In this document: one piece after another, positions 1,294 through 63,857 of the stretch
Numbering within the stretch: position 1 is the stretch's first letter
How the letters are laid out: the number at the start of each line of letters is the position of its first letter
Source: a virus
DNA length: 64,000 bases
Reading direction: 5' to 3' (one strand)
Virus record (IMG/VR): IMGVR_UViG_3300036792_000284
Coordinates: 32,001 to 96,000 of that record
Program-made: the position numbers and the translations under genes
The notes under the pieces: model-generated
The model's database searches: none
What the model was told of the DNA's origin: nothing
Seen by the model: the letters and a program-made list of their open reading frames with translations, nothing else

Positions 1294-1610
1294 GCCGGTG
1301 GAATCGGCGGCGCGGCGACCTCGAAGTAGTCCGCGCCGACCACCTGCACCTCCCCGGTGCCGAGCCACTGGACGGCATAGAGCACGGTTCCCGGGCCTGC
1401 CCACCCGCTGGTGTCGATGTCGTAGTAGTAGACGCCCGTCGACTGCCGGATCACCTGCGCGGAGGCATAGGTGACCGTGGTCACGGCCCCGGCCGCGCCC
1501 GCCTGGTATTGCAGGGTGACGGCAGCGGGGTCCGCCGCCTCGCCGTTCAGGTCGAAGAAGTTGCCGGTCTCGCGGACCAGCGTCCCGGCTATGTAGGTGT
1601 TCGTGCTCAT
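1290..1610 (-). CDS. Putative beta-rich virion structural protein
   Basis: GGAGA RBS; beta-strand pattern (TGVYYYDIDT); in the late operon. Confidence 0.55.
   Translation of the reverse strand: MSTNTYIAGTLVRETGNFFDLNGEAADPAAVTLQYQAGAAGAVTTVTYASAQVIRQSTGVYYYDIDTSGWAGPGTVLYAVQWLGTGEVQVVGADYFEVAAPPIPPA
1302..1307 (-). promoter_or_regulatory. CGAT-class late promoter candidate
   Basis: CCGATT-N8-ATG. Confidence 0.65.
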
Positions 1611-3175
1611 GTGCTGTTCTCCGGTCTCACGTGCGGGGCGGCATTGGCGGGCTGCACCTGCGGCGCGGCATTGGCGGGCTGCACCTGCGGCGCGCCATTG
1701 GCGGGCTGCACCTGCGGCGCGGCATTGGCGGGCTGCGCCCGCGGGGCGGCGTTGGCGGACTGCAGGTGCGGGGCGGCGTTAGCGGACTGCAGGTGCGGGG
1801 CGGCGTTGGCTACCCCGACAGAGCCGGACTGGCCAGGGCTGTTGCCGGTGACAGCGAGAACATCCTGCGCCAGCCCGGTATCGGTCAGGGCCAGGGCCCT
1901 GACCAGGGCAAGCTCGTCGGCGGCGGCCCCGGAGTCTGCTAGCAGCAGCTGTCCGACCGTTAGCTGCTCCGCGGCGGCTCCGCTGTCAGCCAGAGTGACC
2001 AGGACGGCCAACTGGAGAGACTCCGTGCCGGCCCCAGAGTCGGGCAGCCGGACGGTCAGTCCGGCCAGGAACTGCTCAGCCGACTGGCCGGCGTCAGTCA
2101 GGGCCACGGCCACCGTGACGGCCAGATGGTCCAGCCCGGAGCCGGCATCAGCCAGAGGCGCCGCCGAAGACACCGCCAGGGTGTCCGCCCCGGACCCTGA
2201 ATCACTCAGTTGCGGGCTGCTGGTTCCCCCGACCGACAACATGTCAGTGCCGGCGCCGCCGTCAGCCAGCCCCAGGGCCTGCGCCGGAATGGCGAGAGCG
2301 TCCGTCCCGGACCCCAGGTCGGCCAGTGACACGGCCACCTGGCCGACGGCCAGGACATCGGTACCCTGGCCCGCGTCAGCGAGGCTAGTCGCCGCGACCT
2401 GCGAGGTGACCAGGACATCGGCACCCGCGCCGCTGTCGGCCAGGCCGGGCATCACCCCGAGCGCGGCGGACCCGGCCCCGGCTTCAGTGAGGCTGACCGC
2501 CGCGGTCTGGGACGTGACGAGCGTGTCTGTGCCTGTGCCGGCTTCGGCGAGACTCGGCATCACCCCGAGCGCGGCGGCCCCGGCTCCGGCTTCGGTGAGT
2601 GAGACAGGCTGCATCAGGGTCAGCGCATCCGCGCCCAAGCCACTGTCGGCCAGCCCCGGCATCACCCCGAGTGAGGCGGTGCTGGCCCCGGCTTCGGCGA
2701 GTGACACAGCCTGCAGCAGGGTCAGCGCATCCGCGCCCAAGCCGCTGTCGGTGAGCGGTACCGGCTGGGTCGCCGTGAAGGCGTCGGCCCCAGATCCCGC
2801 CTCCGTCAGGCCGGGCAGGACCCCTAGCGCGTCCGAGCCGGTGCCTGATTCGGTCAGGGGAACGGTCGTCACGCCCGTGACCGTCAGGCTGTCAGCCCCG
2901 GCCCCGGCCTCCGCCAGGCTCGGCATCACCCCGAGCGTGTCGGAGCCGGCTCCCGAGTCAGCTAGGGGCGCTGGCTGGGTAAACGCCAGGGAATCGGTTC
3001 CGGCTCCGGTATCGGTAAGCGGGATACCGACCTGTGAAACATCCAGAACATCCGCGCCCGTGCCAGTCTCGGCGAGCGGGACTCCGACCGCGGCCGAGAC
3101 TGCGGGCGGAGTTATGACCTGCTGAGTCCTCCGGTGCCGGCGCCTCCATGCCGCGCTGCCCGGCTGTGTGGCCAC
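1607..3175 (-). CDS. Repeat-rich virion (fibre-like) protein
   Basis: About 23 imperfect L(A/T)(D/E)xGxGxDxL repeats plus a 9-aa C-terminal repeat. Confidence 0.65.
   Translation of the reverse strand: MATQPGSAAWRRRHRRTQQVITPPAVSAAVGVPLAETGTGADVLDVSQVGIPLTDTGAGTDSLAFTQPAPLADSGAGSDTLGVMPSLAEAGAGADSLTVTGVTTVPLTESGTGSDALGVLPGLTEAGSGADAFTATQPVPLTDSGLGADALTLLQAVSLAEAGASTASLGVMPGLADSGLGADALTLMQPVSLTEAGAGAAALGVMPSLAEAGTGTDTLVTSQTAAVSLTEAGAGSAALGVMPGLADSGAGADVLVTSQVAATSLADAGQGTDVLAVGQVAVSLADLGSGTDALAIPAQALGLADGGAGTDMLSVGGTSSPQLSDSGSGADTLAVSSAAPLADAGSGLDHLAVTVAVALTDAGQSAEQFLAGLTVRLPDSGAGTESLQLAVLVTLADSGAAAEQLTVGQLLLADSGAAADELALVRALALTDTGLAQDVLAVTGNSPGQSGSVGVANAAPHLQSANAAPHLQSANAAPRAQPANAAPQVQPANGAPQVQPANAAPQVQPANAAPHVRPENST
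1622..1810. repeat. 27-bp coding tandem repeat, about 7 copies
   Basis: Encodes ANAAP(H/Q/R)(L/V/A)Q(S/P) units. Confidence 0.9.
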
Positions 3176-3215
3176 AGCCGCACCCCCTCAGCTAGTTCTC
3201 ACCGCGAAGGGGCGG

Positions 3216-3794
3216 CTAGTTCTCTCCGTACACCTTGAACTGCTGAAGCGTGGTCGTGTTGCTTGAGCTAGCCACAGACCATGTGCCCCACAGCTCCAGG
3301 AACAGGCTGATCTCGTTGTTCAGCGCAGTAAGGGAGTTAGAGAGGATGGCCGCGTTGTAGGCGGTGCCGAAAGCATTCGCTGTCGTACCCGACACCCGCA
3401 CAGCCCCGTTGAACTGGATGGTCGTGCCGGCATTGCCGACCGCCTGGCAGGTGATGTCACCAGTCAGGTCCCAGTTGGAGGTACCTGTAGCGGGGGTGAT
3501 CGTACCCGTGGTGAACAGGGTTGCGCCGCCGACACCCCCGATCGTGCCCGCCGCCACGTCGAGCCCGCCTGCGAAGGCGAACGTTGCGGTGCCTGCCCCT
3601 CCCCCGACCGTGCCCGCCGCCATGATCTTCAGCGCCTTGCCGACCTGGCTGAAGTAGTTAGCCGGGATAATGCACCGGGGCACCGACGTGGAGGCAGCGG
3701 CGGAGATGACCGCCTGCGCTGTGTAGTTGTTCTTTATGACAGGTGCCGGGAGTTCGTACAGCAGCTCCGGCCACGTGTTCGTGTAACTCGACAT
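3216..3794 (-). CDS. Putative virion structural protein
   Basis: G/T/A-rich beta-type protein in the late operon. Confidence 0.55.
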   Translation of the reverse strand: MSSYTNTWPELLYELPAPVIKNNYTAQAVISAAASTSVPRCIIPANYFSQVGKALKIMAAGTVGGGAGTATFAFAGGLDVAAGTIGGVGGATLFTTGTITPATGTSNWDLTGDITCQAVGNAGTTIQFNGAVRVSGTTANAFGTAYNAAILSNSLTALNNEISLFLELWGTWSVASSSNTTTLQQFKVYGEN

Positions 3795-3806
3795 GACCGC
3801 CGCCTG

Positions 3807-3848
3807 TCAGATGAACGTGTAGGTGACGGGGGCGTTCCAGGTCATCAT
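3807..3848 (-). CDS. 13-aa mini-ORF MMTWNAPVTYTFI copying the C-terminus of the upstream gene
   Basis: GAGGA 7 nt before the first ATG; 27-nt near-duplicate of 3869-3895. Confidence 0.3.
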   Translation of the reverse strand: MMTWNAPVTYTFI

Positions 3849-3858
3849 GGTGCCATCC

Positions 3859-5330: not shown

Positions 5331-5336
5331 AATCGG
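5331..5336 (-). promoter_or_regulatory. CGAT-class late promoter candidate
   Basis: CCGATT-N8-ATG. Confidence 0.65.
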
Positions 5337-5347: not shown

Positions 5348-5385
5348 GCAAAAGGGGCCCGGTTTGCGACCCGGGCCCCTTTTGC
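5348..5385. terminator. Bidirectional intrinsic terminator
   Basis: Perfect 15-bp inverted repeat gcaaaaggggcccgg / ccgggccccttttgc. Confidence 0.85.
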
Positions 5386-5700: not shown

Positions 5701-5790
5701 TAACTACTACGTCCGAGGATGCAGCAACCTGCGTGCACGTGCATCCGGGTCGTGCAAACTTCAGGAACGTTTAAGGTACGTGATCATAGG

Positions 5791-5829
5791 AAAGGCCCCG
5801 ATTCTTGTCAAGAGTCAAGAATCGGGGCC
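5791..5829 (-). terminator. Terminator after the major capsid gene
   Basis: 14-bp inverted repeat ggccccgattcttg / caagaatcggggcc followed by TTT. Confidence 0.8.
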
Positions 5830-5839
5830 CGCCTAAGAG

Positions 5840-7153
5840 CTAGTCGATATTGCCGCCGCCCGCAGCGTTCCCAACCGATCCAGCCCAGTAACCGGCAGGA
5901 ACGGTCGGGCTGGCGGCGTTGGCGATGATGTTGGTGGCGACCAGCATCTGCTCCGGCCGGGTCACGATCGGCAGCATGTGCCATTCGAGCAGGTACTGCC
6001 GCGCGGACGGGTCCTTCTCTTTCCACGTCTTGGCGTACTTGCCCGTGAAGCCCTCGGGCGCCTCGTCGTCGGCGGTCGGACCAATCAGCAGCTCCACCGG
6101 CCGCTGGTCGGTGTAGTTGCCCATGTAGAGCTGGCCGTCCGGCACAAAAAACGTCAGGTTGCCGAGGTCGGACTCGAAGACCTGCTCGACGGTGTTCCAG
6201 GTGAGGCCCATGAAGCCGGTCATCAGGCCGGTCGAGTAGTACTCGTCCTTCATCCGGTCGCTCAGCATGGTCGCCGGAATCGACACGGTGGACGCCTGGG
6301 TCGCGGACACCCACGCCTCCATCAGGCCGGCCATGGTGACCGAGGTGGCGAAGACTTCCTTGGCCGGCACGCGCCCGTGCACCTGCAGCAGCCGCTTCCA
6401 GGACCGGACGTCCTCCATGATCTGGACCGGCGTGGCGTAGGTGATGGTCGGGCTGGTGCCGGCATTCAGCCGGGTGTTGGCCTGGCCGAGCGTCGCACCC
6501 GTCGGGTCGTTCGGCGTGCCAGCACCGGCACCGCCGGTGGTGTAGTACTTCAGCGCGGTGTTCGTGACCCACGGCGCGGCCGGGGTGACGAAGTGGGAGG
6601 CCGGGAACTTGTAGTCGACCGTTGCCTGGACGTCCGCGTAGTTGTACTGGATACCGCCGCCCAGAGCCTGCCAGCAGCTCCACTCCGCGAAATTGTCGAA
6701 CCTCATGTTGAGGTCGTTGATCTCCCGCAGCACCGCGCGCTCGGCGTTGATGCGGGCGATCTCGCCCGGCGTCCGCAGCCAGTGCAGGGTGGTGGGCTCG
6801 AAGACCTTCTTCTCGCGCAGGTAAATGAAGCTCGCGCTTTCCTGGCTGCGGCCGAGACGGCTGATGATGTGTGCCTCGGAGTTGGGCACGTTCGGCTTGG
6901 CGACCGCGCGCGAGCCCTTCACCACGTCCCAGGTAGCGCTCGGGAACGGCCACGGCGTCTGGTCGAGGCGGTTCAGGAGCATCAGGGTCTCGGGCGTTAC
7001 GAATTTCTCCACAACGCCGCGAAGGACCACAGGCTCAAGGAGGCTGATATCAGGAATTTGGCTCACCCCTCCGGGCGTGTCGATGACAGGTCCTCGTGTC
7101 AGCGACACCCGAACGGGTGCCCGGCCTGCGCCGCTCCTTATCACAGGAGCCAC
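5840..7153 (-). CDS. Major capsid protein (start uncertain, possibly near 7066)
   Basis: PDISLLEPVVLRGVVEKF N-terminus, lambda gpE-like character, follows the decoration and protease genes. Confidence 0.85.
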   Translation of the reverse strand: MAPVIRSGAGRAPVRVSLTRGPVIDTPGGVSQIPDISLLEPVVLRGVVEKFVTPETLMLLNRLDQTPWPFPSATWDVVKGSRAVAKPNVPNSEAHIISRLGRSQESASFIYLREKKVFEPTTLHWLRTPGEIARINAERAVLREINDLNMRFDNFAEWSCWQALGGGIQYNYADVQATVDYKFPASHFVTPAAPWVTNTALKYYTTGGAGAGTPNDPTGATLGQANTRLNAGTSPTITYATPVQIMEDVRSWKRLLQVHGRVPAKEVFATSVTMAGLMEAWVSATQASTVSIPATMLSDRMKDEYYSTGLMTGFMGLTWNTVEQVFESDLGNLTFFVPDGQLYMGNYTDQRPVELLIGPTADDEAPEGFTGKYAKTWKEKDPSARQYLLEWHMLPIVTRPEQMLVATNIIANAASPTVPAGYWAGSVGNAAGGGNID

Positions 7154-7191: not shown

Positions 7192-7197
7192 AATCGG
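7192..7197 (-). promoter_or_regulatory. CGAT-class late promoter candidate (capsid gene, leadered)
   Basis: CCGATT just downstream of a terminator hairpin. Confidence 0.6.
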
Positions 7198-7206: not shown

Positions 7207-7259
7207 AAGCACTGAGCCCCGGAGGGCGGGCTCCGGGGCTCAGCGGGGACGGCAGGAGG
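7207..7259. repeat. Direct repeat copy 1 (terminator hairpin)
   Basis: aagcactgagccccggaggg...tccggggctcagcgg(g)gacggcaggagg; 12-bp stem CTGAGCCCCGGA/TCCGGGGCTCAG. Confidence 0.9.
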
Positions 7260-7623: not shown

Positions 7624-7629
7624 TATCGG
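7624..7629 (-). promoter_or_regulatory. CGAT-class late promoter candidate
   Basis: GCCGATA-N8-GTG. Confidence 0.65.
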
Positions 7630-7634: not shown

Positions 7635-7685
7635 AAGCACTGAGCCCCGGAGGGGGATTCCGGGGCTCAGCGGGACGGCAGGAGG
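7635..7685. repeat. Direct repeat copy 2 (terminator hairpin)
   Basis: First 20 nt identical to 7207-7226; same 12-bp stem. Confidence 0.9.
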
Positions 7686-8730: not shown

Positions 8731-9852
8731 TTACTTCCGGGTACCGTTCGGCGTGAAGAACTGGCTGTGCTCCGCCGTCAGCTTGGCCACTTCGGCGTCG
8801 ATGTCCTGCTCGTGCTTCTGCTCGCCGTCGGGGCCGCCGATGCCCGTCTGGACCGAGAGCTGCACGTAAGGGCGGTCGGCGGGGGCGAGGATCGCATCCA
8901 GGCCCGCACGGTTGGACAGCGCCATCTCGATGCCGACTTCGCGGGTCTTGGGCAGCAGCCGCCCGGTGCTGATGTAGCCGTCCACCTCGGTCTCGGCAGC
9001 CGCGAGCTTCAGCTCGTCCACCGTCGAGTGCAGGCTCTTGTTGTCGGCGGCCAGCTCCACCACCGCGGCGGTGACGTCGGACAGGCTCACCTGGCCCGGG
9101 TCGGCGGACAGCTGGATCGCGCCCGAGTCCTTGAGCGCCTGCGCGACGGCGGTGGTCAGCGCGGTCATGTCCGGAGCGGGGACCACGGCAGCAGCAGAAG
9201 CCTGCAGAGCCGTAACATCGATCCCGTGCTGCTCCTTCAGCTGAGCGAGCAGCTCTTCCTTGGTAAGCGGCACGGTTTCCTCCGGCGCGGCAGTCAGTAC
9301 GACAACTTCGCCGGGATTATCGGCGGAGGCCGCGAGGACCTCCTTGTAGTCGTCCAGCCCGGTGACGTAGGGCCGGTTGGTGACCGCGACGTGCAGCAGG
9401 GTGGGGCCGGCCTTCTTGCCGGTGGAGCTGTCGGTGTAGTCCGTGCTCAGGTACGCGCTCGCGCCGAGGTAGGTCTTGCCGAACTTCTCCGCGTCCTGGC
9501 GCGCGTCGATGAGCGCGTACACCTTGTTGTCGCGCGAGCGGATGCCTACGACCTCACCGAGATTGGCGGCCGGGCCCTCAACATGCTCGTTGCGGTCGTT
9601 CGCGAGCGGGACCTGCACGATGTCGCACACGCCTTTGGCGAAGTTGTCCTGCATCTGCGACACGAAGCTGCTGTCGATGCGGATCTTCTCGCCGGTCTTC
9701 GGGTGAATGAGGTCACCCATGTTCAGGATGTGCTTCTCGTACAGCTTTCCCTGCACCCGGCGCGACCGCGCGAGAGCCACCGGGACGTCAGTCACCGGCT
9801 GGTAGGTGTCACCGCCGGGGGCCGGCACGATATAACGCAGGTCATCGCCCAT
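8731..9852 (-). CDS. Prohead protease-scaffold (Mu gpI-like)
   Basis: GPTLLHVAVTNRPYV protease motif; helical acidic C-terminal half. Confidence 0.75.
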   Translation of the reverse strand: MGDDLRYIVPAPGGDTYQPVTDVPVALARSRRVQGKLYEKHILNMGDLIHPKTGEKIRIDSSFVSQMQDNFAKGVCDIVQVPLANDRNEHVEGPAANLGEVVGIRSRDNKVYALIDARQDAEKFGKTYLGASAYLSTDYTDSSTGKKAGPTLLHVAVTNRPYVTGLDDYKEVLAASADNPGEVVVLTAAPEETVPLTKEELLAQLKEQHGIDVTALQASAAAVVPAPDMTALTTAVAQALKDSGAIQLSADPGQVSLSDVTAAVVELAADNKSLHSTVDELKLAAAETEVDGYISTGRLLPKTREVGIEMALSNRAGLDAILAPADRPYVQLSVQTGIGGPDGEQKHEQDIDAEVAKLTAEHSQFFTPNGTRK

Positions 9853-9860: not shown

Positions 9861-9866
9861 AATCGG
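9861..9866 (-). promoter_or_regulatory. CGAT-class late promoter candidate
   Basis: CCGATT-N8-ATG. Confidence 0.65.
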
Positions 9867-9867
9867 A

Positions 9868-10074
9868 TTAACGGGCCTCCGGGGCGAACGCCCTCACCAA
9901 GACCGCGGCCTCCACCAGCACCCGGGAGGCCTCCTCCGGGTTCGTCTCGGCCAGAGCGCGGCCCTCCCGCACCTTCTCCTCCGCCTCGGTCAGCCCGGCG
10001 TCGTGCAGGAACTGGGCCATCCTGTCAAGCTGCGCGAGCACCTCGCCGTCGGGGCGGGGCTCCTTGCTTCTCAC
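9868..10074 (-). CDS. Hypothetical protein
   Basis: GTGA coupling to the upstream small ORF. Confidence 0.6.
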   Translation of the reverse strand: MRSKEPRPDGEVLAQLDRMAQFLHDAGLTEAEEKVREGRALAETNPEEASRVLVEAAVLVRAFAPEAR

Positions 10075-10205: not shown

Positions 10206-10442
10206 CTAATCGGGCTGGTACTCCGCCAGGCCCGGGATGCCGGCCAGCACCCCGGCCGCGTGCGCCAGGTCCTCCTCGCTACCGGAGACGGTCAGGCCGC
10301 CGTCGGTCATCGCCTTGGTGTCCAGCGGTCCGAAGACGTAGTTGACGTGACGGTTGGCCCGCGCGTGCTCGAATAGCGCGATAGCTGCCAGTGCGTAAGA
10401 GGCGGTCGTGTCCGCGAACCACTGGCTCGTCTTGTCAGCCAC
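10206..10442 (-). CDS. Hypothetical protein
   Basis: ORF track; overlaps the upstream stop. Confidence 0.6.
   Translation of the reverse strand: MADKTSQWFADTTASYALAAIALFEHARANRHVNYVFGPLDTKAMTDGGLTVSGSEEDLAHAAGVLAGIPGLAEYQPD
10208..10213 (-). promoter_or_regulatory. CGAT-class late promoter candidate
   Basis: CCGATT-N8-GTG. Confidence 0.55.
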
Positions 10443-11453: not shown

Positions 11454-11459
11454 AATCGG
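11454..11459 (-). promoter_or_regulatory. CGAT-class late promoter candidate
   Basis: CCGATT-N8-GTG. Confidence 0.65.
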
Positions 11460-15005: not shown

Positions 15006-15011
15006 AATCGG
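15006..15011 (-). promoter_or_regulatory. CGAT-class late promoter candidate
   Basis: CCGATT-N8-ATG. Confidence 0.65.
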
Positions 15012-15051
15012 AAAAGCGCGCAGCCCCCGGCGTCACTGCCGGGGGCTGCGC
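15012..15051 (-). terminator. Intrinsic terminator
   Basis: 14-bp perfect inverted repeat gcgcagcccccggc / gccgggggctgcgc followed by TTTT. Confidence 0.85.
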
Positions 15052-15082
15052 AGGTGGAGCTATTCAGTTGTCACCAGGCTGG

Positions 15083-16227: not shown

Positions 16228-16233
16228 TTCGAG

Positions 16234-16306
16234 TGGCCTCGGCTGGACTCGAACCAGCGACCCACGCCTTAGGAGGACGCGGCTCTATCCACTGAGCTAC
16301 GGGGCC
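16234..16306 (-). tRNA. tRNA-Arg(CCT)
   Basis: Cloverleaf; GCGTC-CT CCT AA-GGCGT. Confidence 0.93.
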
Positions 16307-16307
16307 C

Positions 16308-16383
16308 TGGAGGCGGAAACCGGAATCGAACCGGTGTGCGTCGCTTTGCAGGCGACTGCATATCCAGACTCTGCCATACCGCC
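16308..16383 (-). tRNA. tRNA-Cys(GCA)
   Basis: GTCGC-CT GCA AA-GCGAC; CCA encoded. Confidence 0.95.
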
Positions 16384-16384
16384 G

Positions 16385-16461
16385 TGGTGCGCTCGGAGGG
16401 ACTCGAACCCCCGACCCCTGGTTCCGGAAACCAGTGCTCTATTCCACTGAGCTACGGGCGC
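16385..16461 (-). tRNA. tRNA-Arg(CCG)
   Basis: CTGGT-TT CCG GA-ACCAG; CCA encoded. Confidence 0.95.
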
Positions 16462-16462
16462 T

Positions 16463-16546
16463 TGGTGACGGACGCAGGAATCGAACCTGCCGTGCCGAAG
16501 CAGCCGGGTTACAGCCGGCCCCCATGCCATCTCGGGTCACTCCGCC
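16463..16546 (-). tRNA. tRNA-Tyr(GTA)
   Basis: GCCGG-CT GTA AC-CCGGC; long variable arm. Confidence 0.93.
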
Positions 16547-16547
16547 T

Positions 16548-16622
16548 TGGGGTTGGTAACGAGAATCGAACTCGTATATCTGGAGCCACAGTCCAGCGCT
16601 CTGCCGTTGAGCTATACCGACC
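16548..16622 (-). tRNA. tRNA-His(GTG)
   Basis: CTGGA-CT GTG GC-TCCAG; G-1:C73. Confidence 0.93.
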
Positions 16623-16623
16623 G

Positions 16624-16695
16624 TGGGCGATGCTGGGATCGAACCAGCGACAACTGGTGTGTGAGACCAGCGCTCTTCCGCTGAGCTAAACGCCC
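16624..16695 (-). tRNA. tRNA-Val(CAC)
   Basis: CTGGT-CT CAC AC-ACCAG. Confidence 0.93.
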
Positions 16696-16706
16696 TCGTA
16701 CTTGCG

Positions 16707-16779
16707 TGCCCCCCGGGAGACTCGAACTCCCACCCTCCTGATCCGTAGTCAGACGCGCTATCCGTTGCGCTAGAGGGGC
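16707..16779 (-). tRNA. tRNA-Arg(ACG)
   Basis: TCTGA-CT ACG GA-TCAGG. Confidence 0.93.
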
Positions 16780-16783
16780 AAAG

Positions 16784-16855
16784 TGGGCGTACCTGGGGTT
16801 GAACCAGGGTCCTCTTCCGTGTCGGGGAAGCGCGCTTCCGCTGCGCTACACGCCC
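16784..16855 (-). tRNA. tRNA-Val(GAC), C33
   Basis: CTTCC-CC GAC AC-GGAAG. Confidence 0.9.
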
Positions 16856-16860
16856 ATCGC

Positions 16861-16888
16861 TAGACAGTGGTCAAGAAACAGGTACCGT
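16861..16888 (+). promoter_or_regulatory. Sigma-A-type promoter antisense to the tRNA array
   Basis: TAGACA-N16-TACCGT, 8 nt before GTG 16897. Confidence 0.55.
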
Positions 16889-16896
16889 TTAATCAC

Positions 16897-22064: not shown

Positions 22065-22107
22065 TATCGGATGCTTCTACCGTACTACCCTGCTTGACTC
22101 GTGTCAA
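22065..22107 (-). promoter_or_regulatory. Tandem promoters upstream of the tRNA array
   Basis: TTGACA-N17-TACGGT (22079-22107) followed by CCGATA (22065-22070). Confidence 0.7.
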
Positions 22108-22108
22108 C

Positions 22109-22384
22109 CTACATTTCGGAGAACAAGTTGGCGGCCAGACCGCTGGCCACCCCCGCCTGGTCGTCCAGCAGGACCTGCCGGACTAGCGGGTCCCCAGCGG
22201 CGCGGATGTCGGCCGGGCCGATGTAGGTGCGCTCGCCCCGCATCACCCGGACCGCGGTGATGGCGTCCATCAGGCGCTCGGGCTTCTCCCCCAGCGGCCC
22301 GGCCAGCTCGCCCATGGTCTTCTCGCGGTCCGCCTCGCCGAGCCCGGCCGCGTACTCCATCAGCTTCTCGAACGGCATCTGCAT
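22109..22384 (-). CDS. Hypothetical protein
   Basis: GGAGA RBS; ORF track. Confidence 0.65.
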   Translation of the reverse strand: MQMPFEKLMEYAAGLGEADREKTMGELAGPLGEKPERLMDAITAVRVMRGERTYIGPADIRAAGDPLVRQVLLDDQAGVASGLAANLFSEM

Positions 22385-25389: not shown

Positions 25390-25395
25390 AATCGG
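25390..25395 (-). promoter_or_regulatory. CGAT-class late promoter candidate (leadered)
   Basis: CCGATT 34 nt upstream of ATG 25355. Confidence 0.5.
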
Positions 25396-27734: not shown

Positions 27735-27740
27735 AATCGG
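27735..27740 (-). promoter_or_regulatory. CGAT-class late promoter candidate
   Basis: CCGATT-N8-ATG. Confidence 0.65.
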
Positions 27741-36506: not shown

Positions 36507-37685
36507 TTACTTTCCTTCCTTGTAACCGACCAGGCGTGACACCATCTGCGTGCAGATGCCCGTCACCCCGGCCGCCTTGTCTTCCAGCAGCAGGTGCGGC
36601 AGCGCCTTGCCGCGAGGCTTCCCGAGCCTGAACTCGCAGAACGGGCCCGGGTGGGCCGACAGCATGGCGCCCAGGAACGCAGCGTTGACCACCAGCCCGT
36701 GGTGGCCGCCGTCCCACGTCGCGGCGATGACCTCCTCGGCCCCGTTGTTGGCGGCGTCGCGGGACATGACGGTCAGCACCGGCTTCGCCCCGGTGCTGTC
36801 GGCGATGAGCGCCACGGCGGACGTGCTCGCGTCGGAGTTGATCCGCACCCGGCGCAGCGCCCCGGCCAGCTCCGCCTTGTCGACGCCCAGCAGCATGTCG
36901 TTGCCTGCTGCGAGCCGCAGGAACGTGCTGTCGACGTCCGGGAACGCGTGGTTCATCTTGAGCATGGCCAGCGTGACCACGCCGACCCGGAACACCACGT
37001 ACGACCCGGAGTCGGCCACCGCCACGTCGTCCACCGGGTTTTTCAGCAGCTTCAGCAGGTCGTCGAGCACGCCGCCGGGGATGCACAGCGGCACCGGAAA
37101 CCCGGGAACCGGGCACTGGGCGAACTGGCTGCTGTCGGCCGCGCGGGCATACATGACGCCGCCCGCCTCGGCGATGCTCACCTGCCGGGACGACGGGCGC
37201 CCGTCGTCCTTGCCGACCGCGTGCTTGACCGTGTTCAGCGCCGCGAGCAGCTTCTCACGGCTGACAGGGGCGAACTGCGCGCCGGACAGGTCGGGCAGTT
37301 CGGTGTACCCGTTCGGGCTGAACAACTTCAGCGACCAGGTAGCCGACCCCGCGGTCACCAGGGCAGTCATGCCTTTCACCGACACGGTAACGTCGCCGTC
37401 CGGCGCCTCGCCCAGCATCGCCTCCAGCTTCCTGGCCGGCAGGAGGACCTCGCCCTCGCTCTGGGCGGTCACCGCCGGGGTCTCGGCGAAGACAGCCTGC
37501 CGCTGGTCGCTGGCGGCCAGCATCAGCCGGCCGGGGCCCACGGTGACCTTGAAGCACCCGTTCGCCGGCAGCGTCGGCGACGACGGGACGGCGGGCAGCG
37601 CCCACTTGGCCAACTGGGCCAGGTGCCCCGTGCGGACCGTGAACTCAAAGGCGCCGTAGTCGGTGCCGCCCTGCACTTCGCTCAC
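36507..37685 (-). CDS. dnaN: Sliding clamp, DNA Pol III beta-like
   Basis: 392 aa with three-domain pattern; VLLPARKL, FPD, LVVNAAFL. Confidence 0.85.
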   Translation of the reverse strand: MSEVQGGTDYGAFEFTVRTGHLAQLAKWALPAVPSSPTLPANGCFKVTVGPGRLMLAASDQRQAVFAETPAVTAQSEGEVLLPARKLEAMLGEAPDGDVTVSVKGMTALVTAGSATWSLKLFSPNGYTELPDLSGAQFAPVSREKLLAALNTVKHAVGKDDGRPSSRQVSIAEAGGVMYARAADSSQFAQCPVPGFPVPLCIPGGVLDDLLKLLKNPVDDVAVADSGSYVVFRVGVVTLAMLKMNHAFPDVDSTFLRLAAGNDMLLGVDKAELAGALRRVRINSDASTSAVALIADSTGAKPVLTVMSRDAANNGAEEVIAATWDGGHHGLVVNAAFLGAMLSAHPGPFCEFRLGKPRGKALPHLLLEDKAAGVTGICTQMVSRLVGYKEGK

Positions 37686-40279: not shown

Positions 40280-41221
40280 CTAGGCGATGAGGGCAGTCCA
40301 GGTAGCTCTCCCGACCACGCCGTCCTGCGCGAGCCCGGCGTGCCGCTGCACAGCCACCACCGCGGCCCTGGTGGCCGGCCCGAAGTTGCCGTCGGCGGCA
40401 ATAGCCGTAACCGCGCCAAGGCCGTTCCACCGGCCGTAGCCGGCTACCTCGTTCTGCAGGCGGTGCACGTACCAGGCCGCCGGCGCGCCGCTGTCCTTCG
40501 AGCCGCTCTGCAGGGTAGGCAGGTTGTTCACGAGGGTCTCCGTCCAGTTGTCGACAGGTACCGGGGGAGCATCGCCGGCCCACGCCTGTAGCGCGGCCAG
40601 GTCCCCGTTGAAGTAGTCAGCGTCGCCGCCGCCGACCCCCGTGGCCCCGTTCTGCCAGAACGTCCAGGTCTTCCACGGCGCCGGGACGATAGGGGCCTGC
40701 TCGTAGTAGGCCAGGAACAGCGGGTAGCCCGCGCACGCCCCGAGCAGGTTCTGCGCCATGGAGACGTCGGTGTAGAGCATCACCCGGTGCTGGGCGCCGA
40801 CCAGGGCCTGCACCTCGTTCAGGAACGCCAGGGCGGCCGGGCCCACCGGGGCCGCCAGCGGGTCACCCCAGATCCCGCAGTGCGTGCGGTCCGGAGCGCG
40901 CTCGGTGCCGTAGACCTCCCGCCCGTCGTCCCCGGCCGTGATCTCCACGTCCGCGATGAAGACGTCCCCGGCGACGATGCCGCCGTTCTCTTTCACCGTG
41001 GCGATGAAGAACTGCGCCTGCGCCACCGGGTCGTCGGCCGGGTGGAAGAAGTGGTAGGCGCCGCGGACCTTGCCCTCGGCCCGGAGGTTGAACCAGTTCG
41101 CCTTGAACGTCGAGTCCGACCAGTCGGTGCCCTCGGTGACCTTGGCGAACCCGAAAGAGTCGCCTGCCCACCCGGATACCCGCTGGAAACTGCTCCGGTC
41201 CTCGCCAATGACGTTGGTCAC
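40280..41221 (-). CDS. Endolysin: GH25 muramidase plus peptidoglycan-binding domain
   Basis: FAKVTEG, GAYHFF, ADVE, WTFWQ; DGNFGPATRAAV...DGVVGRATW. Confidence 0.9.
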   Translation of the reverse strand: MTNVIGEDRSSFQRVSGWAGDSFGFAKVTEGTDWSDSTFKANWFNLRAEGKVRGAYHFFHPADDPVAQAQFFIATVKENGGIVAGDVFIADVEITAGDDGREVYGTERAPDRTHCGIWGDPLAAPVGPAALAFLNEVQALVGAQHRVMLYTDVSMAQNLLGACAGYPLFLAYYEQAPIVPAPWKTWTFWQNGATGVGGGDADYFNGDLAALQAWAGDAPPVPVDNWTETLVNNLPTLQSGSKDSGAPAAWYVHRLQNEVAGYGRWNGLGAVTAIAADGNFGPATRAAVVAVQRHAGLAQDGVVGRATWTALIA

Positions 41222-41257: not shown

Positions 41258-41263
41258 AATCGG
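41258..41263 (-). promoter_or_regulatory. CGAT-class late promoter candidate (endolysin, leadered)
   Basis: GCCGATT 36 nt upstream of GTG 41221. Confidence 0.55.
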
Positions 41264-59144: not shown

Positions 59145-59452
59145 AGGGGACGCTGCATCTCTGCCAGCAGCTCAGCGTCAACCGGCCCCTCCAGAACCTC
59201 GCCACCGTAGTGCCGGCTGCGCGCATTGGCCTCGGCGAACGTCATAGCGAACTGGTAGTACGCCTCGCGCGGCTGGTCCGCCATAACGTGCTCTACAGTC
59301 TCACGCGCGCTCTTGCGGGCATCATTCGCAGCCTTTTCGGCGAAGTACTCAACCACCTCGTCCGGGGTCCCGTCCCAGCACACCCACGTGTCGGAGTAAC
59401 TGCTGAAAACTGCCAGCTTGCCATCCGGCTGCTTAATCACCTGGTAGGCCAT
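59141..59452 (-). CDS. Hypothetical protein
   Basis: ORF track. Confidence 0.65.
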   Translation of the reverse strand: MAYQVIKQPDGKLAVFSSYSDTWVCWDGTPDEVVEYFAEKAANDARKSARETVEHVMADQPREAYYQFAMTFAEANARSRHYGGEVLEGPVDAELLAEMQRPL

Positions 59453-60144
59453 AAGGCCACCACCTTCACCATCGCCTCGTGTATCTCCAAGACCGCCCCC
59501 TGGTGGAGCCGGGCGGCCTCGTCAGTTGATACGCCGGCGTAGCTGGCCAGCTCGGCCAAGGGCATCCCGTGGTAGAAGTGCAGCGCCAGCACGACCCGGG
59601 CCGCCTCCCCGAGACGTCGCACGACGCCGGACACCGCGGCCAGCACCTCCGACACCACCGCCTGGCCCTCCACGTCGTCCTCGCCGGCGACGTCGTGCGG
59701 CTCGGCGTCGATGCTCACCGGGCGGGCGGCCACCGCGGCCAGGGTGTCGCGCACCTCGGCGAGGCTCAGCCCGCTCGCCTTCGCCAGCTGGGCCTCGGTC
59801 AGCCCCCGGTCCTGCCCGGCCTCCCGCAGCGCCTTCACCTTGCCCCGGGCGCTGCGCGTCACCCAGTCCTGGGACCGCAGGTGGTCCAGGATCGAGCCGC
59901 GCATGCGCCGGGTGCAGTAGACGCGGAAGTACTCGAACCGCTCCGGGTCGTAGCCGTGCTCGGCGCAGAACACCGGCCAGCGGTGCGCGGCGGCGGCCAG
60001 CCCGGACAGCGCCAGCGCCTCCAGCTCGTCCATCTCCAGCGCGTGCGGGGCCCGCTGCCACACCCGGTAGGCCTCGGCGCGAGCGGACGGCACAATCTCC
60101 GTCGTCATCTCGGCAATCTTCGCCTTGAAAGCAGCGTCATCCAT
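59437..60144 (-). CDS. FliA/WhiG (sigma28)-family sigma factor
   Basis: RRMRGSILDHLRSQDWVTRSAR, VSID, VLALHFYHGMPLAELA. Confidence 0.88.
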   Translation of the reverse strand: MDDAAFKAKIAEMTTEIVPSARAEAYRVWQRAPHALEMDELEALALSGLAAAAHRWPVFCAEHGYDPERFEYFRVYCTRRMRGSILDHLRSQDWVTRSARGKVKALREAGQDRGLTEAQLAKASGLSLAEVRDTLAAVAARPVSIDAEPHDVAGEDDVEGQAVVSEVLAAVSGVVRRLGEAARVVLALHFYHGMPLAELASYAGVSTDEAARLHQGAVLEIHEAMVKVVALWPTR

Positions 60145-60298
60145 CCTGCTCGACCTCCTGGCGGGCCGGGCGGATAACCTCGTCCGCCATCACCAGGGGG
60201 ATGCCGCAGTAGTTCGCGACCTGTTCGTCTGTCCAGTCACCGTGCACTCGCAGCACTTTTTTGGCAGCGAGGAACCACTCAACTCTTGAGGAGGCCAT
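60137..60298 (-). CDS. 53-aa HTH-like protein
   Basis: MASSRVEWFLAAKKVLRVHGDWTDEQVANYCGIPL; ACGATC-N8-ATG start. Confidence 0.6.
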   Translation of the reverse strand: MASSRVEWFLAAKKVLRVHGDWTDEQVANYCGIPLVMADEVIRPARQEVEQDG

Positions 60299-60306
60299 GC
60301 CCGCGT

Positions 60307-60312
60307 GATCGT
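60307..60312 (-). promoter_or_regulatory. CGAT-class promoter candidate (sigma operon)
   Basis: ACGATC-N8-ATG. Confidence 0.5.
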
Positions 60313-60453: not shown

Positions 60454-62166
60454 CTAGGACGGCTCGGCGTCGAGCTTGCCGGTGGCGACCAGGCGCATCA
60501 GCTGCCACGGGCTCAGCGAGGTGAACATGCCCTCCTCCTCGTCCCACACCACCTCGGCCATCGCCGCCTCGCGCCGCAGCATCGGCAGGAACGCCTCCTC
60601 CACCGTGTTGCGGGCCAGCAGGTGGTGGAAGTACACGCTCGGGTACGGGCTGCCCTGGCGGGCCACCCGGCCCGCCAGCTGCGTCATCCGGGCCGGGTTG
60701 GGGATGGTGTCGGCGGCGATGAGGTGCCGGGCCACCTGCAGGTTGAGGCTGGCCTCGATGGTGGTGGTGCCGACCAGCACCCGGCAGGCCGGGTCCTCGC
60801 GGAACCGCTCCAGCCGGCGGCGGCGCTCCCGCTTGTCGGTCTCCCCCGACCACATCAGCACGTGGTCGATGCCCGCGTCCTGCAGCCGGGCCGACATGGC
60901 CGCTACGTTCTGCTTGAAGTAGATGAAGCAGACCGCCTTCTCCTCCGACAGGTCGCCGGTGATCCGGTCCATCGCCCAGTCCAGCTTCACCGAGTCGTCG
61001 GCGTCCGCGCCGGAGTCGAGGGCGGCGAGGCCGCTGCAAATCTGCCGGGCACGGGTGAACGCCGCGCCGGCCTCGGCCGTGGAGACCCGCGCGCCGGCGT
61101 CGCTCAGCCGCCGCAGGATGCCCCTGCTCAGCTCCGCGTAGCGGGCCCGCTGCTTCGGGCTCAGGTCCAGGAACACCGGGTCGTAGACGACCTGGGGCAT
61201 CTCCACGTCGTCCACGTCGGCTGCGCCGCGGCGCAGCACCAGCGGCCAGATCGCCTCGCGGAACTCCCTGACCAGCCGGGGGTTGGCGACGATGCCGGCG
61301 TCCACCGCGACGCGCTTGCGCATCCGGGTGCGGCCCGTCTTGTCCTGCGGGTCCTTGACGACGATCCACTTCATCGCCTGGGCGACGTACCGCGACTTCA
61401 CCCGCTCGATCGTGCCGAGCCGGTACCGGCCGCCGACCGGCTCCAGGAACGACCACAGCTCTTCCAGCCGCTTCTGCAGCGGGGTGGCGTGCAGCCCGTG
61501 CACCCGGGAGCACTTGGCGGCCAGCCGGTTGACGGCCCGGGCCGTCTCGGTGGTGTGGTTGCGCATCGGGTCGATGTCGTCGTAGATCAAGATGCCGACC
61601 GGGAAGCGGTCGAGCAGGTCCACGTCGCCCTCGCGCTGCATCTTCTTGCCGTGCGCGCCGCCCAGCGTGCGGTCGCCGACGACCGCGATCTCCCAGTTGC
61701 CCATGTAGCCGCGGGTGCGCTGGTTCCTGTCGCCGTCGGCCACGTAGAACGAGATGCCGGGCAGCACGCGCTTCAGCTCGTTGCCCCACGGGTCCCAGGT
61801 GGCGGCCGACTTGCAGACGATGACCGCCCGGTTGTGCAGGCCCAGCTCCCCGGTCTCCTTGCACATCGCGAGCAGGAGCAGGGCCGTGGCCGTCTTGCCC
61901 AGCCCGACGGCGTCGGTCAGCAGGCCCGGCAGCCCCAGGTACATCCAGGCCGCCCCCACCCGCTGGTGCTTGCGCGGCTTGATGCCGCACCGGCGGCAGA
62001 AGATGAGCAGGTCGGGCGCGTGCTCCGCGCACGGCTCGCTGTTGAACCATTTCAGGTCCGGCCAGTCGTCGATGTCCGGCAGCCCCCTGATCCGGGCGGC
62101 GGCAGCGGCGCGGACGGCGCGGGACAGCCGGGCGGCGTCGGGCAGGTCAGTATCGAGCAGGGCCAC
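60454..62166 (-). CDS. SNF2-like SF2 helicase
   Basis: DAVGLGKT, LIYDD, HATP, TIEASLNL, QLAGRVARQG. Confidence 0.88.
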   Translation of the reverse strand: MALLDTDLPDAARLSRAVRAAAAARIRGLPDIDDWPDLKWFNSEPCAEHAPDLLIFCRRCGIKPRKHQRVGAAWMYLGLPGLLTDAVGLGKTATALLLLAMCKETGELGLHNRAVIVCKSAATWDPWGNELKRVLPGISFYVADGDRNQRTRGYMGNWEIAVVGDRTLGGAHGKKMQREGDVDLLDRFPVGILIYDDIDPMRNHTTETARAVNRLAAKCSRVHGLHATPLQKRLEELWSFLEPVGGRYRLGTIERVKSRYVAQAMKWIVVKDPQDKTGRTRMRKRVAVDAGIVANPRLVREFREAIWPLVLRRGAADVDDVEMPQVVYDPVFLDLSPKQRARYAELSRGILRRLSDAGARVSTAEAGAAFTRARQICSGLAALDSGADADDSVKLDWAMDRITGDLSEEKAVCFIYFKQNVAAMSARLQDAGIDHVLMWSGETDKRERRRRLERFREDPACRVLVGTTTIEASLNLQVARHLIAADTIPNPARMTQLAGRVARQGSPYPSVYFHHLLARNTVEEAFLPMLRREAAMAEVVWDEEEGMFTSLSPWQLMRLVATGKLDAEPS

Positions 62167-62173
62167 GCCTCTA

Positions 62174-62413: not shown

Positions 62414-62417
62414 GTAG

Positions 62418-62774
62418 CTAGCTCACCCGCGGAGGCGCAGCGGCGTGCTCGTGCCCCGTCGCATGCTTGTAGAGGTCGGCCATAATCTGGTGGGCGGCCT
62501 CGACGGCCCTCCTGCGCTTGCGGTCCTGCCGGACCAGGTGCAGCGTCCCGCCCGCGGCGATGCACGCCCCGATGTCACTGGTCACGTTCGTGTAGTTGCC
62601 GCCGATAAGCTCGGCCGACTGCGGCACGTGCACCCCGGCCAGCGGCAGGACGATGAGGTAGGCGCCCAGGGCCAGCAGCCACAGCACGTGCACGCGGCTG
62701 GACAGCGCGCGCGGGATGTAGGACAGGGCCTTGTCGAGCCGGCTTTCCGGCTCGGCCAGTTCAGGGGCGCTCAC
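62418..62774 (-). CDS. Membrane protein
   Basis: 1-2 TM segments; ACGATT-N8-GTG start. Confidence 0.65.
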   Translation of the reverse strand: MSAPELAEPESRLDKALSYIPRALSSRVHVLWLLALGAYLIVLPLAGVHVPQSAELIGGNYTNVTSDIGACIAAGGTLHLVRQDRKRRRAVEAAHQIMADLYKHATGHEHAAAPPRVS

Positions 62775-62782
62775 GGCGGGGC

Positions 62783-62788
62783 AATCGT
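62783..62788 (-). promoter_or_regulatory. CGAT-class late promoter candidate
   Basis: ACGATT-N8-GTG. Confidence 0.6.
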
Positions 62789-62790
62789 CA

Positions 62791-63105
62791 CTAGCACCCG
62801 GGCCCGGCCATGTACTCGCGGTGCAGCCGCCCGATAAGTTCGCGGTGCGGCCTCCTCCCGCACAGGTCCGGGTGGTGGTGCCGGCAGAGCCGGAACGTGC
62901 CCCCCGCGGCCGGGAAGCGGCCGATCCGCAGGCACTTCCACGAGTCGTGGCAGGTGTGCCGGAGGTACCAGGTCACCGTGAACACGGTGAGCCCGACGAA
63001 GAACGACCCGGACACCCCCGACCAGAAGTCGTAGGGCACCCAGACGCCGTACGGGGCTCCGTAGTCGCACCCGAAAAAGTGGACGAGCCAGTGGACGAGG
63101 GCCAC
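62791..63105 (-). CDS. Membrane protein with Cys/His C-terminus
   Basis: TM segment plus CH...C...CRHHH; ACGATT-N8-GTG start. Confidence 0.65.
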   Translation of the reverse strand: MALVHWLVHFFGCDYGAPYGVWVPYDFWSGVSGSFFVGLTVFTVTWYLRHTCHDSWKCLRIGRFPAAGGTFRLCRHHHPDLCGRRPHRELIGRLHREYMAGPGC

Positions 63106-63113
63106 GGCGTGGC

Positions 63114-63119
63114 AATCGT
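63114..63119 (-). promoter_or_regulatory. CGAT-class late promoter candidate
   Basis: ACGATT-N8-GTG. Confidence 0.6.
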
Positions 63120-63547
63120 CACCCGGTGACGATGCCGGCGGCCACGCACAGGCCCGCTGCCGCCGCGGTGATGCCGTACGACAGTGCCCACGCCCGCCAG
63201 CCGCTGTCCGCCCTTATCACAGCGACGACAGCGCACAGAGCGGCTGCGGCGAGGCCACTCGCAAGAAGAGCCGTGCGTCCCGCTGCAACAGCGAACGGAA
63301 GCGCAACAAGGACGGACCCGACAGTGGTGGCGAGTCCGCAAACTGCAGCCCCGCCGAGACCGTCACCGGGATCGGACTGGTAGCGGCCGGACGCCATGCC
63401 GGGGAACGCCGCCAGGCCGCCGGACAGCCCGGCCAGCCACACGGCCAGGTGGGGCTGGTGCGCGATGTAAAGGGCGAGAGACAGCCCGATGCCGGTCGTC
63501 GTCCCGTCGGCCAGCCCCATGATCGCAGCGGCACGGGGGACCTTCAC
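63119..63547 (-). CDS. VIT1/CCC1-like membrane protein
   Basis: IMGLADG and GMASGRYQS match the VIT1 TM1/TM2 pattern. Confidence 0.65.
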   Translation of the reverse strand: MKVPRAAAIMGLADGTTTGIGLSLALYIAHQPHLAVWLAGLSGGLAAFPGMASGRYQSDPGDGLGGAAVCGLATTVGSVLVALPFAVAAGRTALLASGLAAAALCAVVAVIRADSGWRAWALSYGITAAAAGLCVAAGIVTG

Positions 63548-63825
63548 TCGCCGGCGACGCCGAACACGCCCCGGATGCTGGCCAGCAGCTTGCTCAGCTC
63601 GGCCTCCAGCGCGGCGACCGCCTCGGGCCCGTACTTCGCCACGAGGGCGAGGATGTCGGCCTTGGAGGTGCCGAGAACGCTGAGGACCTTGTCTTCGGCG
63701 GCCTTGGCCTCGGCGAGCAGCGTCCTGGCCTCGGTCAGCGCCGCTCCGTCGATCTTCGCGACCTCGGCTTCCACGTCGTGGAGAACCTTCTCGACAGCGC
63801 CTTCAAGGTTAGTGAACAGGGACAT
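63544..63825 (-). CDS. Amphipathic helical hypothetical protein
   Basis: AGGAGG RBS; upstream CCGATT. Confidence 0.7.
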   Translation of the reverse strand: MSLFTNLEGAVEKVLHDVEAEVAKIDGAALTEARTLLAEAKAAEDKVLSVLGTSKADILALVAKYGPEAVAALEAELSKLLASIRGVFGVAGE

Positions 63826-63851
63826 GGGGGCCTCCTTTGCTCCGGCGGGAG

Positions 63852-63857
63852 AATCGG
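63852..63857 (-). promoter_or_regulatory. CGAT-class late promoter candidate (leadered)
   Basis: GCCGATT 26 nt upstream of ATG 63825. Confidence 0.55.

Follow-up and report, generated by a model that had tools for sequence, protein, structure and literature searches.

Phage sigma factor cascades, the T4 late promoters that consist of a -10 element only, and the leaderless mRNAs of actinobacteria are each well known. The T4 late system combines the sigma factor gp55, the co-activator gp33 and the sliding clamp gp45 on a -10 promoter, TATAAATA, and the promoters of the sigma-28 family (FliA/SigD/WhiG) are composed of TAAA or T(A/C)AA, a spacer of 15-16 nt and GCCGATAA. In cellular WhiG and FliA promoters the -35 element is highly conserved (PMC12871210). 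Phage sigma cascades include those of SPO1, with gp28 and gp33/34, and of phiEco32 and 7-11, with gp36, whose promoters were bioinformatically predicted (PMC4331800, PMC8948821). Here we describe a window of 64,000 nt, bases 32001-96000 of a 124,279-bp viral contig (IMG/VR record IMGVR_UViG_3300036792_000284, ~82% complete), which carries a short box, (C/A)CGATT(A), ahead of a set of phage genes, together with a gene for a sigma factor resembling FliA and WhiG. Judged from sequence comparison, this box is quite probably the sole recognition element of promoters read by the phage sigma, and many of the resulting mRNAs would be leaderless.

The contig under study (G000) was compared with three further IMG/VR contigs of 146-151 kb (G001-G003), retrieved by means of the sigma protein, whose own sigmas share 74, 71 and 58% identity with that of the window. 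Window coordinates are used throughout, also for features beyond its ends. A first-pass annotation had placed (C/A)CGAT(T/A/C) 8 nt before the start codon of 11 minus-strand genes, and further upstream of the capsid gene, the gene starting at 25355, the endolysin gene and the gene starting at 63825. All eleven of the former, termed N8 sites below, were recovered on the minus strand with a gap of exactly 8 nt between hexamer and ATG or GTG, as were the four leader-type sites at 7192-7197, 25390-25395, 41258-41263 and 63852-63857. The boxes of the window are listed below, with scores from a position weight matrix (PWM) where available; ORF denotes an open reading frame, SD a Shine-Dalgarno sequence, TSS a transcription start site and dG a folding free energy in kcal/mol.

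1302-1307, minus strand: CCGATT, N8, ATG 1293 (243 aa, DUF6424); PWM 17.3 bits; inside the 3' end of the upstream gene.
5331-5336, minus strand: CCGATT, N8, ATG 5322 (240 aa); follows a terminator, hairpin 5348-5385, dG -34.6.
7192-7197, minus strand: CCGATT(AG) with leader, before the major head protein gene; past a terminator at 7210-7245.
7624-7629, minus strand: CCGATA, N8, GTG 7615 (114 aa, coiled coil); hairpin 7638-7672, dG -34.8; ortholog site in G002.
9318-9323, minus strand: CCGATA(A) inside the protease gene, candidate internal promoter; PWM 16.1 bits.
9861-9866, minus strand: CCGATT(AG), N8, ATG 9852 (373 aa, head maturation protease/scaffold); ortholog sites in G001 and G002.
10208-10213, minus strand: CCGATT(AG), N8, GTG 10199 (42-aa ORF); the upstream gene ends at the TAG of the box; ortholog sites in G002 and G003.
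11454-11459, minus strand: CCGATT, N8, GTG 11445 (336 aa); product weakly resembles the Mu F head-morphogenesis protein.
15006-15011, minus strand: CCGATT, N8, ATG 14997 (127 aa); PWM 19.6 bits; ortholog sites in G001 and G002.
22065-22070, minus strand: CCGATA(A), upstream of the array of 33 tRNA genes; PWM 11.1 bits; just downstream of a sigmaA-type TTGACA-N17-TACGGT.
25390-25395, minus strand: CCGATT(A) with leader, before ATG 25355 (268 aa, SD); PWM 18.7 bits.
27735-27740, minus strand: CCGATT(A), N8, ATG 27726 (147 aa); PWM 15.9 bits; in-frame stop 9 nt upstream.
41258-41263, minus strand: CCGATT with leader, before the endolysin gene (40280-41221); PWM 16.4 bits.
60307-60312, minus strand: ACGATC, N8, ATG 60298, putative autoregulatory promoter of the operon of a 53-aa ORF and the sigma gene; PWM 11.4 bits.
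62783-62788, minus strand: ACGATT, N8, GTG 62774 (118 aa); PWM 14.9 bits; no in-frame start codon upstream.
63114-63119, minus strand: ACGATT, N8, GTG 63105 (104 aa); PWM 11.6 bits; no in-frame start codon upstream.
63852-63857, minus strand: CCGATT with leader; PWM 13.8 bits; predicted TSS ~18 nt before ATG 63825 (SD AAGGAGG).

Enrichment of the box, which had been proposed as a check, depends on how strictly the motif is defined. The loose form MCGATH is not enriched in the window (93 observed vs 113 expected), whereas CCGATT and ACGATT on the gene strand at the fixed offset are. Over the entire 124-kb contig the gene strand carries 20 copies of CCGATT and the opposite strand 4, and eight of the 20 gene-strand copies are followed after 8 nt by ATG or GTG (RTG), the background RTG frequency being 0.027 (binomial p = 3e-8). 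The gene strands of the three relatives give 9/21, 11/28 and 6/16 (binomial p = 1e-9, 6e-11 and 2e-6); their opposite strands have no such site, and a reversed control pattern occurs 0-1 times. Offset 8 is the sole peak over offsets 0-29 in the four genomes. With a PWM built from the three relatives only, this contig has 21 matches of at least 11 bits on the gene strand vs 1 on the other strand. Beyond the window, the same contig holds two N8 sites, at -3005 and -6669, and three leader-type boxes, which precede the tail assembly chaperone gene and other virion genes.

Conservation is concentrated in the same short segment. In six sets of orthologous sites, invariant columns make up 53-76% of the stretch from box to start codon vs 3-19% of the 58 nt upstream. 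At the 5331 site all four genomes share the box, its spacing and the start codon, and just 5% of the columns upstream are invariant; the terminator hairpin before the 5322 gene is conserved in structure but not in sequence. Orthologs of the 27735 site in G001-G003 likewise retain the box while their flanks diverge.

The anatomy of the element was derived from an alignment of 53 N8 sites from the four genomes. Its footprint reads (C/A)CGATT(A)-N6-C followed by RTG, and the information content upstream of the box is ~0 at every position. The 8-nt spacer follows the consensus (A)NCCNGGC, ends in GGC and lacks an SD. Position -1 is C in 44 of the 53 sites and position +1 is a purine in all 53, the pyrimidine-purine pair that usually marks a transcription start. 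ATG serves as start codon in 28 sites and GTG in 24, one of the two in 52/53 altogether, with TTG found once, inside a hairpin that is no gene. In mycobacteria, leaderless translation takes place only from a 5' ATG or GTG (PMC4633059). The leader-type sites display the same C-then-purine at the same distance, followed by a leader of 17-120 nt with an SD.

When the start codon is taken as the predicted +1, the box occupies C-14 C-13 G-12 A-11 T-10 T-9 A-8. The P. aeruginosa (Pa) fliC promoter is numbered (-15)GCCGATAA(-8) (PMC12784957), and E. coli (Ec) sigma-28 promoters have conserved C-13 and G-12 (bioRxiv 10.1101/2020.01.02.893370). On this predicted +1, the box at -14 to -8 fits the sigma-28 -10 register exactly. 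A single sigma-28 arginine (Ec R91, Pa R97) reads both G-15 and C-14, a single mutation being tolerated and a double one not, according to a passage of PMC12784957 that cites Koo et al. 2009. In the phage sites, G-15 is present in 18/20 lacking C-14 vs 11/39 having C-14 (Fisher p = 6e-6), a compensation that mirrors the extended -10 redundancy of sigma-28 promoters.

Upstream of the box, a WhiG-type -35 tetramer at N15-18 was found in 2/52 sites vs 0.97 by chance, and the search for 4-/5-mer enrichment in -45 to -3 yielded only GC-rich k-mers from hairpins. These counts, with the flat information profile, bear out the earlier remark that no -35 consensus is visible, and the absence of upstream information argues that these promoters have no -35 element. 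The same absence bears on an alternative in which the boxes are promoters read by a host sigma, either its own FliA/WhiG or another alternative factor, with the phage sigma having other targets or acting as a decoy. The core CGA and the register are indeed those of cellular sigma-28/WhiG promoters, but cellular WhiG and FliA need a -35 T(A/C)AA or CTCA, which is found here in just two of the 52 sites, ~1 being expected by chance. We consider a host reader improbable, also in view of the residues of the phage sigma described below.

N8 sites often lie at gene junctions, 3-11 nt past the upstream stop codon or overlapping it. In at least 10 sites the upstream stop is the TAG or TAA of CCGATTAG/CCGATTAA, which also stands in the frame of the downstream gene, 9 nt ahead of its RTG, and thereby makes this RTG the first possible start of the ORF; an RTG that is the first possible start is found in 8/13 strict N8 sites of this contig. 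At 10206-10213 and 9861-9868, and also at -3005 and -6669, the putative promoter, the stop codon and the start codon are packed into ~17 nt. Such junctions could suggest that the box is an operator for a phage DNA-binding regulator, a place where RNA is processed into leaderless mRNAs, or a signal for SD-independent translation of polycistronic RNA, and coupling of termination to reinitiation could explain the missing SD. However, the stop-to-start distance varies and the box-to-start distance is fixed. As a translation signal the box was rejected, the same box being found 26-120 nt upstream of genes with an SD, at variable distance.

Four boxes had been described as sitting directly behind terminator hairpins. 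These hairpins are real (dG -32 to -37 kcal/mol, z-scores -5 to -7), and two of the four are also accepted by a terminator scan; the 15006 box, for example, lies 4 nt past the hairpin at 15017-15052 (dG -36.8). As these four boxes are 4-12 nt past strong terminators, a new promoter is required at these places, and nothing else is conserved there. An RNA processing site would find little upstream RNA left to process behind such terminators. The C-1/purine+1 pair, the register of A-11 and the compensation between -15 and -14 are hallmarks of promoters read by sigma-28, and no other promoter-like element is conserved nearby. An operator or RNA-level role for the box is, in our view, very improbable, and a -10-only promoter is preferred.

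The candidate reader of these promoters is encoded within the window, overlapping a small conserved ORF.

59437-60144, minus strand: phage sigma, 235 aa, a divergent FliA/WhiG-like group-3 factor, assigned by profile match, structure alignment and AlphaFold2 (AF2) model.
60137-60298, minus strand: conserved 53-aa ORF, predicted leaderless, overlapping the start codon of the sigma gene; peptide conserved in G001-G003.

The best family match of the sigma is TIGR02479 FliA_WhiG (E = 3.6e-23, 82.5 bits), and it passes the superfamily model TIGR02937 (51.2 vs 42.9 bits), a search with which revealed no second sigma in the contig, this being its single sigma-like gene. Residues 16-227 align to residues 19-238 of E. 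coli FliA (6pmi), and a full-length alignment was also obtained with S. venezuelae WhiG. The top Foldseek matches of the AF2 model (predicted local distance difference test, pLDDT, 78.7) are B. subtilis SigD, Aquifex sigma28/FlgM 1rp3, S. venezuelae WhiG 6pfj and Pa sigma28, over ~225-245 columns. The protein has the group-3 architecture, with sigma2, sigma3 and sigma4 and without region 1.1.

Residues that contact the promoter were assigned by mapping the E. coli list (bioRxiv 10.1101/2020.01.02.893370) through the FliA alignment. The -10 and extended -10 arginines Ec R34, R58, R74, R84, R91 and R94 are kept as phage R31, R55, R80, R90, R97 and R100, and Ec R98 corresponds to a lysine. The -35-contact residues are replaced (Ec K208 by A197 and R220 by E209; Pa S224 by D208 and Q228 by R212). 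Among 16 sigmas of the clade the invariant columns cluster in residues 22-168, including QDWVTRS and R97, and the 4.2 helix is variable. The first-pass annotation was thus correct in describing a FliA/WhiG-like sigma with an altered region 4.2 helix at 59437-60144. By keeping the residues that read the box and shedding those that read a -35 element, the sigma matches the architecture of the promoters. A host sigma as reader is at odds with this loss of -35 contacts alongside retention of the -10 and extended -10 arginines, and with the joint presence of sigma and box in 5/5 phages examined, including the distant Microbacterium phage Magritte. From its family match, its residue pattern and this co-occurrence we infer that the promoters are read by the phage sigma and not by one of the host, that the predicted +1 positions are TSSs, and that sigma4 acts without -35 contact.

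One further feature of the sigma is its acidic sigma3.2 linker, residues 142-164, PVSIDAEPHDVAGExDVEGQAVV. It is near-invariant in the 16 clade members and predicted to be disordered (pLDDT below 50), and may matter for initiation at a fixed +1.

Magritte (OR553905, 133 kb) is the only related cultured phage. A megablast search of 8 kb against GenBank phages gave zero matches and no close relative, and the sole blastn match among GenBank phages was the terminase segment of Magritte. Its gp47, which carries the annotation 'DNA binding protein', can be aligned with the sigma along the full length (E = 4e-16, 24% identity), keeps RAQDHVPRRQR and also has a non-canonical 4.2 helix. The Magritte genome carries the 11-mer CGATATCCCTG in 10 copies on the forward strand and 0 on the reverse. 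Three copies are followed by AC and then ATG, and two of the ATGs, 8 nt past the box, coincide with starts that had been annotated independently, at 18374 for gene 19 (scaffolding) and at 70419 for gene 98. Other copies precede the gene of the major tail protein and further virion genes. No -35 element is visible at the Magritte boxes, and no description of the box was found in the literature. At gene 9, annotated to start at 5332, CGATATCCCTGAC-ATG places a leaderless in-frame start at 5353, and the annotated start may lie 21 nt too far upstream.

The proposal of a -10-only, leaderless promoter class read by a sigma-28/WhiG-like phage factor is therefore well supported by the register, the -15/-14 compensation, the bases at -1 and +1 and the conservation over four genomes. 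The residue pattern of the sigma, the variant box of Magritte and the absence of the box from the early region of the genome add to this support. The G+C content of the window is ~69%, nearly all genes lie on the minus strand, and the blocks follow one another in reading order as listed here.

~92275 to 64500, largely past the window end, minus strand: early region of small genes, first in reading order.
62166-59437, minus strand: SNF2 helicase, 53-aa ORF and sigma gene, the second block, after the early region.
Next after the sigma block, minus strand: replication module, including the endolysin gene.
Downstream of the replication module, minus strand: terminase, then the tRNA array.
Last block, running past the window start, minus strand: head, tail and other virion genes.

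The early region contains ~24 gene-strand copies of cTTGACnnnAGTCAAGcc-N-TAnnCT, at 68269-90732 and mostly beyond the window. These early promoters are sigmaA-like, TTGACN-N17-TAnnCT, and between each of them and the start codon lies a conserved leader, GAAGGGCAGGCACCC. No CGAT box of 11 bits or more lies in the early region of G000. In G000, G001 and G002, N8 sites start only past the end of the early promoters, with zero N8 sites in the early region. One further copy of the early type lies at 22070-22110, before the tRNA array (33 genes at 16233-21421), adjoining the CCGATAA box. With both elements side by side, the tRNAs may be expressed both early and late.

The boxes had been ascribed mostly to virion or lysis genes and to a late programme. 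Boxes do precede the endolysin, protease/scaffold, major head, tail chaperone and unnamed virion genes, but the class is not confined to such functions, as four sites lie ahead of the sigma gene and replication module. A late programme is too narrow a term, as boxes also stand before the sigma gene, before genes heading the replication module and before the tRNA array, and their position before these three suggests a post-early class, middle plus late. Three boxes, at 63852, 63114 and 62783, lie ahead of the helicase-sigma block, and the weaker 60307 box precedes the 53-aa ORF. The arrangement of box, 53-aa ORF and sigma gene is kept in 4/4 genomes; in the relatives, ACGAT(T/C) stands at N8 before each copy of the 53-aa ORF (N9 in G002). 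This arrangement suggests positive autoregulation of the sigma after a first read-through from the early promoters.

The 53-aa ORF product (MASSRVEWFLAAKK...PARQEVEQDG) could be a partner or regulator of the sigma; neither it nor the flanking small proteins have an informative PHROG or Pfam match. Directly upstream of the sigma operon, at 60454-62166 on the minus strand, lies an SNF2-family ATPase/helicase (SNF2-rel_dom E = 5e-19, Helicase_C E = 8e-15), for which a RapA-like tie to RNA polymerase is conceivable.

Several observations weigh against a -10-only class read by the phage sigma. A structural study of Pseudomonas argued that the -35 element fixes the sigma-28 register (PMC12784957). 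With the -35 element of cellular sigma-28/WhiG promoters conserved and, by that argument, register-fixing, a type without it is unprecedented and may need a helper. The sigma scores 82.5 bits, well under the curated FliA/WhiG cut-off of 189.6 bits, and several E. coli -10-contact residues are altered (H26 to A, Q63 to R, T69 to V, Q73 to R and R95 to G). Co-occurrence of sigma and box was seen in only five genomes, four of them closely related, and the host could possess a FliA/WhiG of its own. Four boxes lie upstream of the sigma gene itself, so the circuit needs a separate trigger; reading by a host sigma would account for these boxes, since something must fire them first.

One candidate helper is the sliding clamp. 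The first-pass annotation suggested coupling of the sigma to the phage DnaN clamp, and the corresponding addition to the phage-sigma reading is that weak -10-only promoters are activated by a replication-loaded beta-clamp acting through sigma4 or a co-activator. The promoters are -10-only like the T4 late promoters, clamp-activated late transcription is documented for T4 (PMC2988020) and Mu (PMC12867686), and a beta-clamp homologue is encoded at 36507-37685 (N-domain model PF00712, E = 2e-13; the C-domain model PF02768 gave no match). Sigma4 is retained though its DNA contacts are lost, and the conserved 53-aa protein is predicted to be co-transcribed with the sigma. However, inspection of the sigma and 53-aa protein sequences revealed no QL(S/D)LF-like clamp-binding peptide, and the sigma is a full three-domain group-3 factor, unlike T4 gp55. 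The clamp is present in every relative, which makes its co-occurrence with the sigma uninformative. E. coli sigma-28 relies mainly on the -10 element, with a weak -35 (bioRxiv 10.1101/2020.01.02.893370), so that a helper is not strictly required. Clamp coupling is not supported and amounts to speculation, and we regard it as unlikely.

A broader form of the same idea is that sigma4, released from -35 reading, is now a docking site for a phage partner that gates post-early transcription, for instance by tying it to replication as in T4 and Mu. The 53-aa protein, the adjacent SNF2 ATPase or the phage beta-clamp could be this partner. Such docking is unlikely; if true, it would mean that actinophages had independently evolved a late transcription that depends on a clamp or co-activator, with a sigma-28 factor as its scaffold.

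On the preferred reading by the phage sigma, the programme would probably proceed as follows. Early genes would be transcribed from the ~24 host-sigmaA-type promoters TTGACN-N17-TAnnCT, and the sigma operon would be reached first by read-through and then boosted from its own CGAT box. With the box as -10 element, at -14 to -8, host core RNA polymerase bound to the FliA/WhiG-type phage sigma would start transcription 7 nt past the box, at a purine that follows a C. For about half of the promoters this purine would be the A or G of ATG/GTG, and the mRNA, leaderless and without an SD, would be translated via the leaderless route common in Actinobacteria; the remaining promoters would give a 17-120-nt leader with a normal SD. 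In this way the sigma would turn on the head of the replication module, the tRNA array, the endolysin gene and the virion genes, many of these targets lying directly behind intrinsic terminators or at junctions where the box contains the upstream stop codon.

Several products of boxed genes have recognizable families. The 1293 gene product matches Pfam DUF6424 (E = 2e-58), ORF 5840-7153 the PHROG major head protein (E = 7e-24), the 9852 gene product the PHROG head maturation protease (E = 2.5e-10) and the 40280-41221 product the PHROG endolysin (E = 8e-27). The start of the major head gene may be 7153 or 7066: the ORF opens at GTG 7153 and homology begins near GTG 7066, which has GGAGG just 1 nt upstream, and a message begun at the predicted TSS (~7183) would have a leader of 30-117 nt. 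Just past this gene, at 5783-5830 on the minus strand, lies a perfect palindrome, CCCCGATTCTTGAC...GTCAAGAATCGGGG, containing a near-consensus sigma70-type TTGACA-N17-TATGAT (11/12 matches); a terminator and a host-type promoter may overlap here, amid virion genes. The box at 9318-9323 (CCGATAAtcccggcG) lies 592 nt ahead of the protease/scaffold stop codon and may drive a C-terminal product.

The phage is an uncultured soil phage of ~125-150 kb infecting high-GC bacteria, and at least 180 homologues of its sigma occur in metagenomes, on contigs of up to 155 kb. The findings outline a concrete transcription programme for this large uncultured clade of ~150-kb soil actinophages, with host sigmaA for the early genes and then a sigma-28-like phage factor that would read a single 7-8-bp box. 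A full-text literature search returned no paper on a phage FliA/WhiG-type sigma with such promoters. If true, this would be the first sigma-28-family factor working without a -35 element, with a bearing on how much that element adds to promoter melting and to the register of sigma-28. The rigid distance between box and start provides a rule for calling start codons without an SD in these genomes, and the ~20-bp promoters could serve as orthogonal parts for high-GC hosts. Magritte offers a cultured system in which the programme can be tested.

Set against known systems, the phage promoters share with those of sigma-28 the CGA(T) core, A-11, an octamer at -15 to -8 of the predicted +1 and the either/or use of G-15 and C-14. 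The sigma shares with sigma-28 factors the three-domain fold and the segment RSxDWVxRSxR (RSRDWVPRSVR in E. coli). In contrast to sigma-28 systems, the promoters lack a -35 element and the sigma4.2 contacts have been exchanged, R220 to E among them; the sigma is a phage product serving phage genes, and for about half of the promoters predicted TSS and start codon are one and the same position. As in the T4 late system, a phage sigma would act on a single -10-region element without a -35 to switch on virion genes, a likeness seen here at the sequence level. The box is unrelated in sequence to the T4 element, gp55 is a minimal region-2 sigma whereas sigma2, sigma3 and sigma4 are present here, no clamp-binding motif was found here, and T4 late mRNAs carry leaders.

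The cascades of SPO1, phiEco32 and 7-11 resemble the predicted programme in assigning early genes to the host sigma and middle or late genes to a phage sigma, with a conserved low-copy motif that can be discovered by intergenic comparison. They differ from it in sigma lineage, here FliA/WhiG-like, and in the presumed high-GC actinobacterial host, the leaderless geometry and the placement of promoters within gene junctions. As in the leaderless mRNAs of actinobacteria (Shell et al. 2015, PMC4633059), ATG or GTG stands at the predicted +1 without an SD. Those leaderless genes mostly have sigmaA-type TANNNT promoters, whereas in the phage a whole regulon bears a sigma-28-type box at a rigid distance. 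Magritte has the same helicase-sigma order (gp46-gp47), and its CGAT(A/T) box is confined to the gene strand, 8 nt before SD-less starts or further upstream. Its box differs in running on as TCCCTG and in being preceded by GG(C/T).

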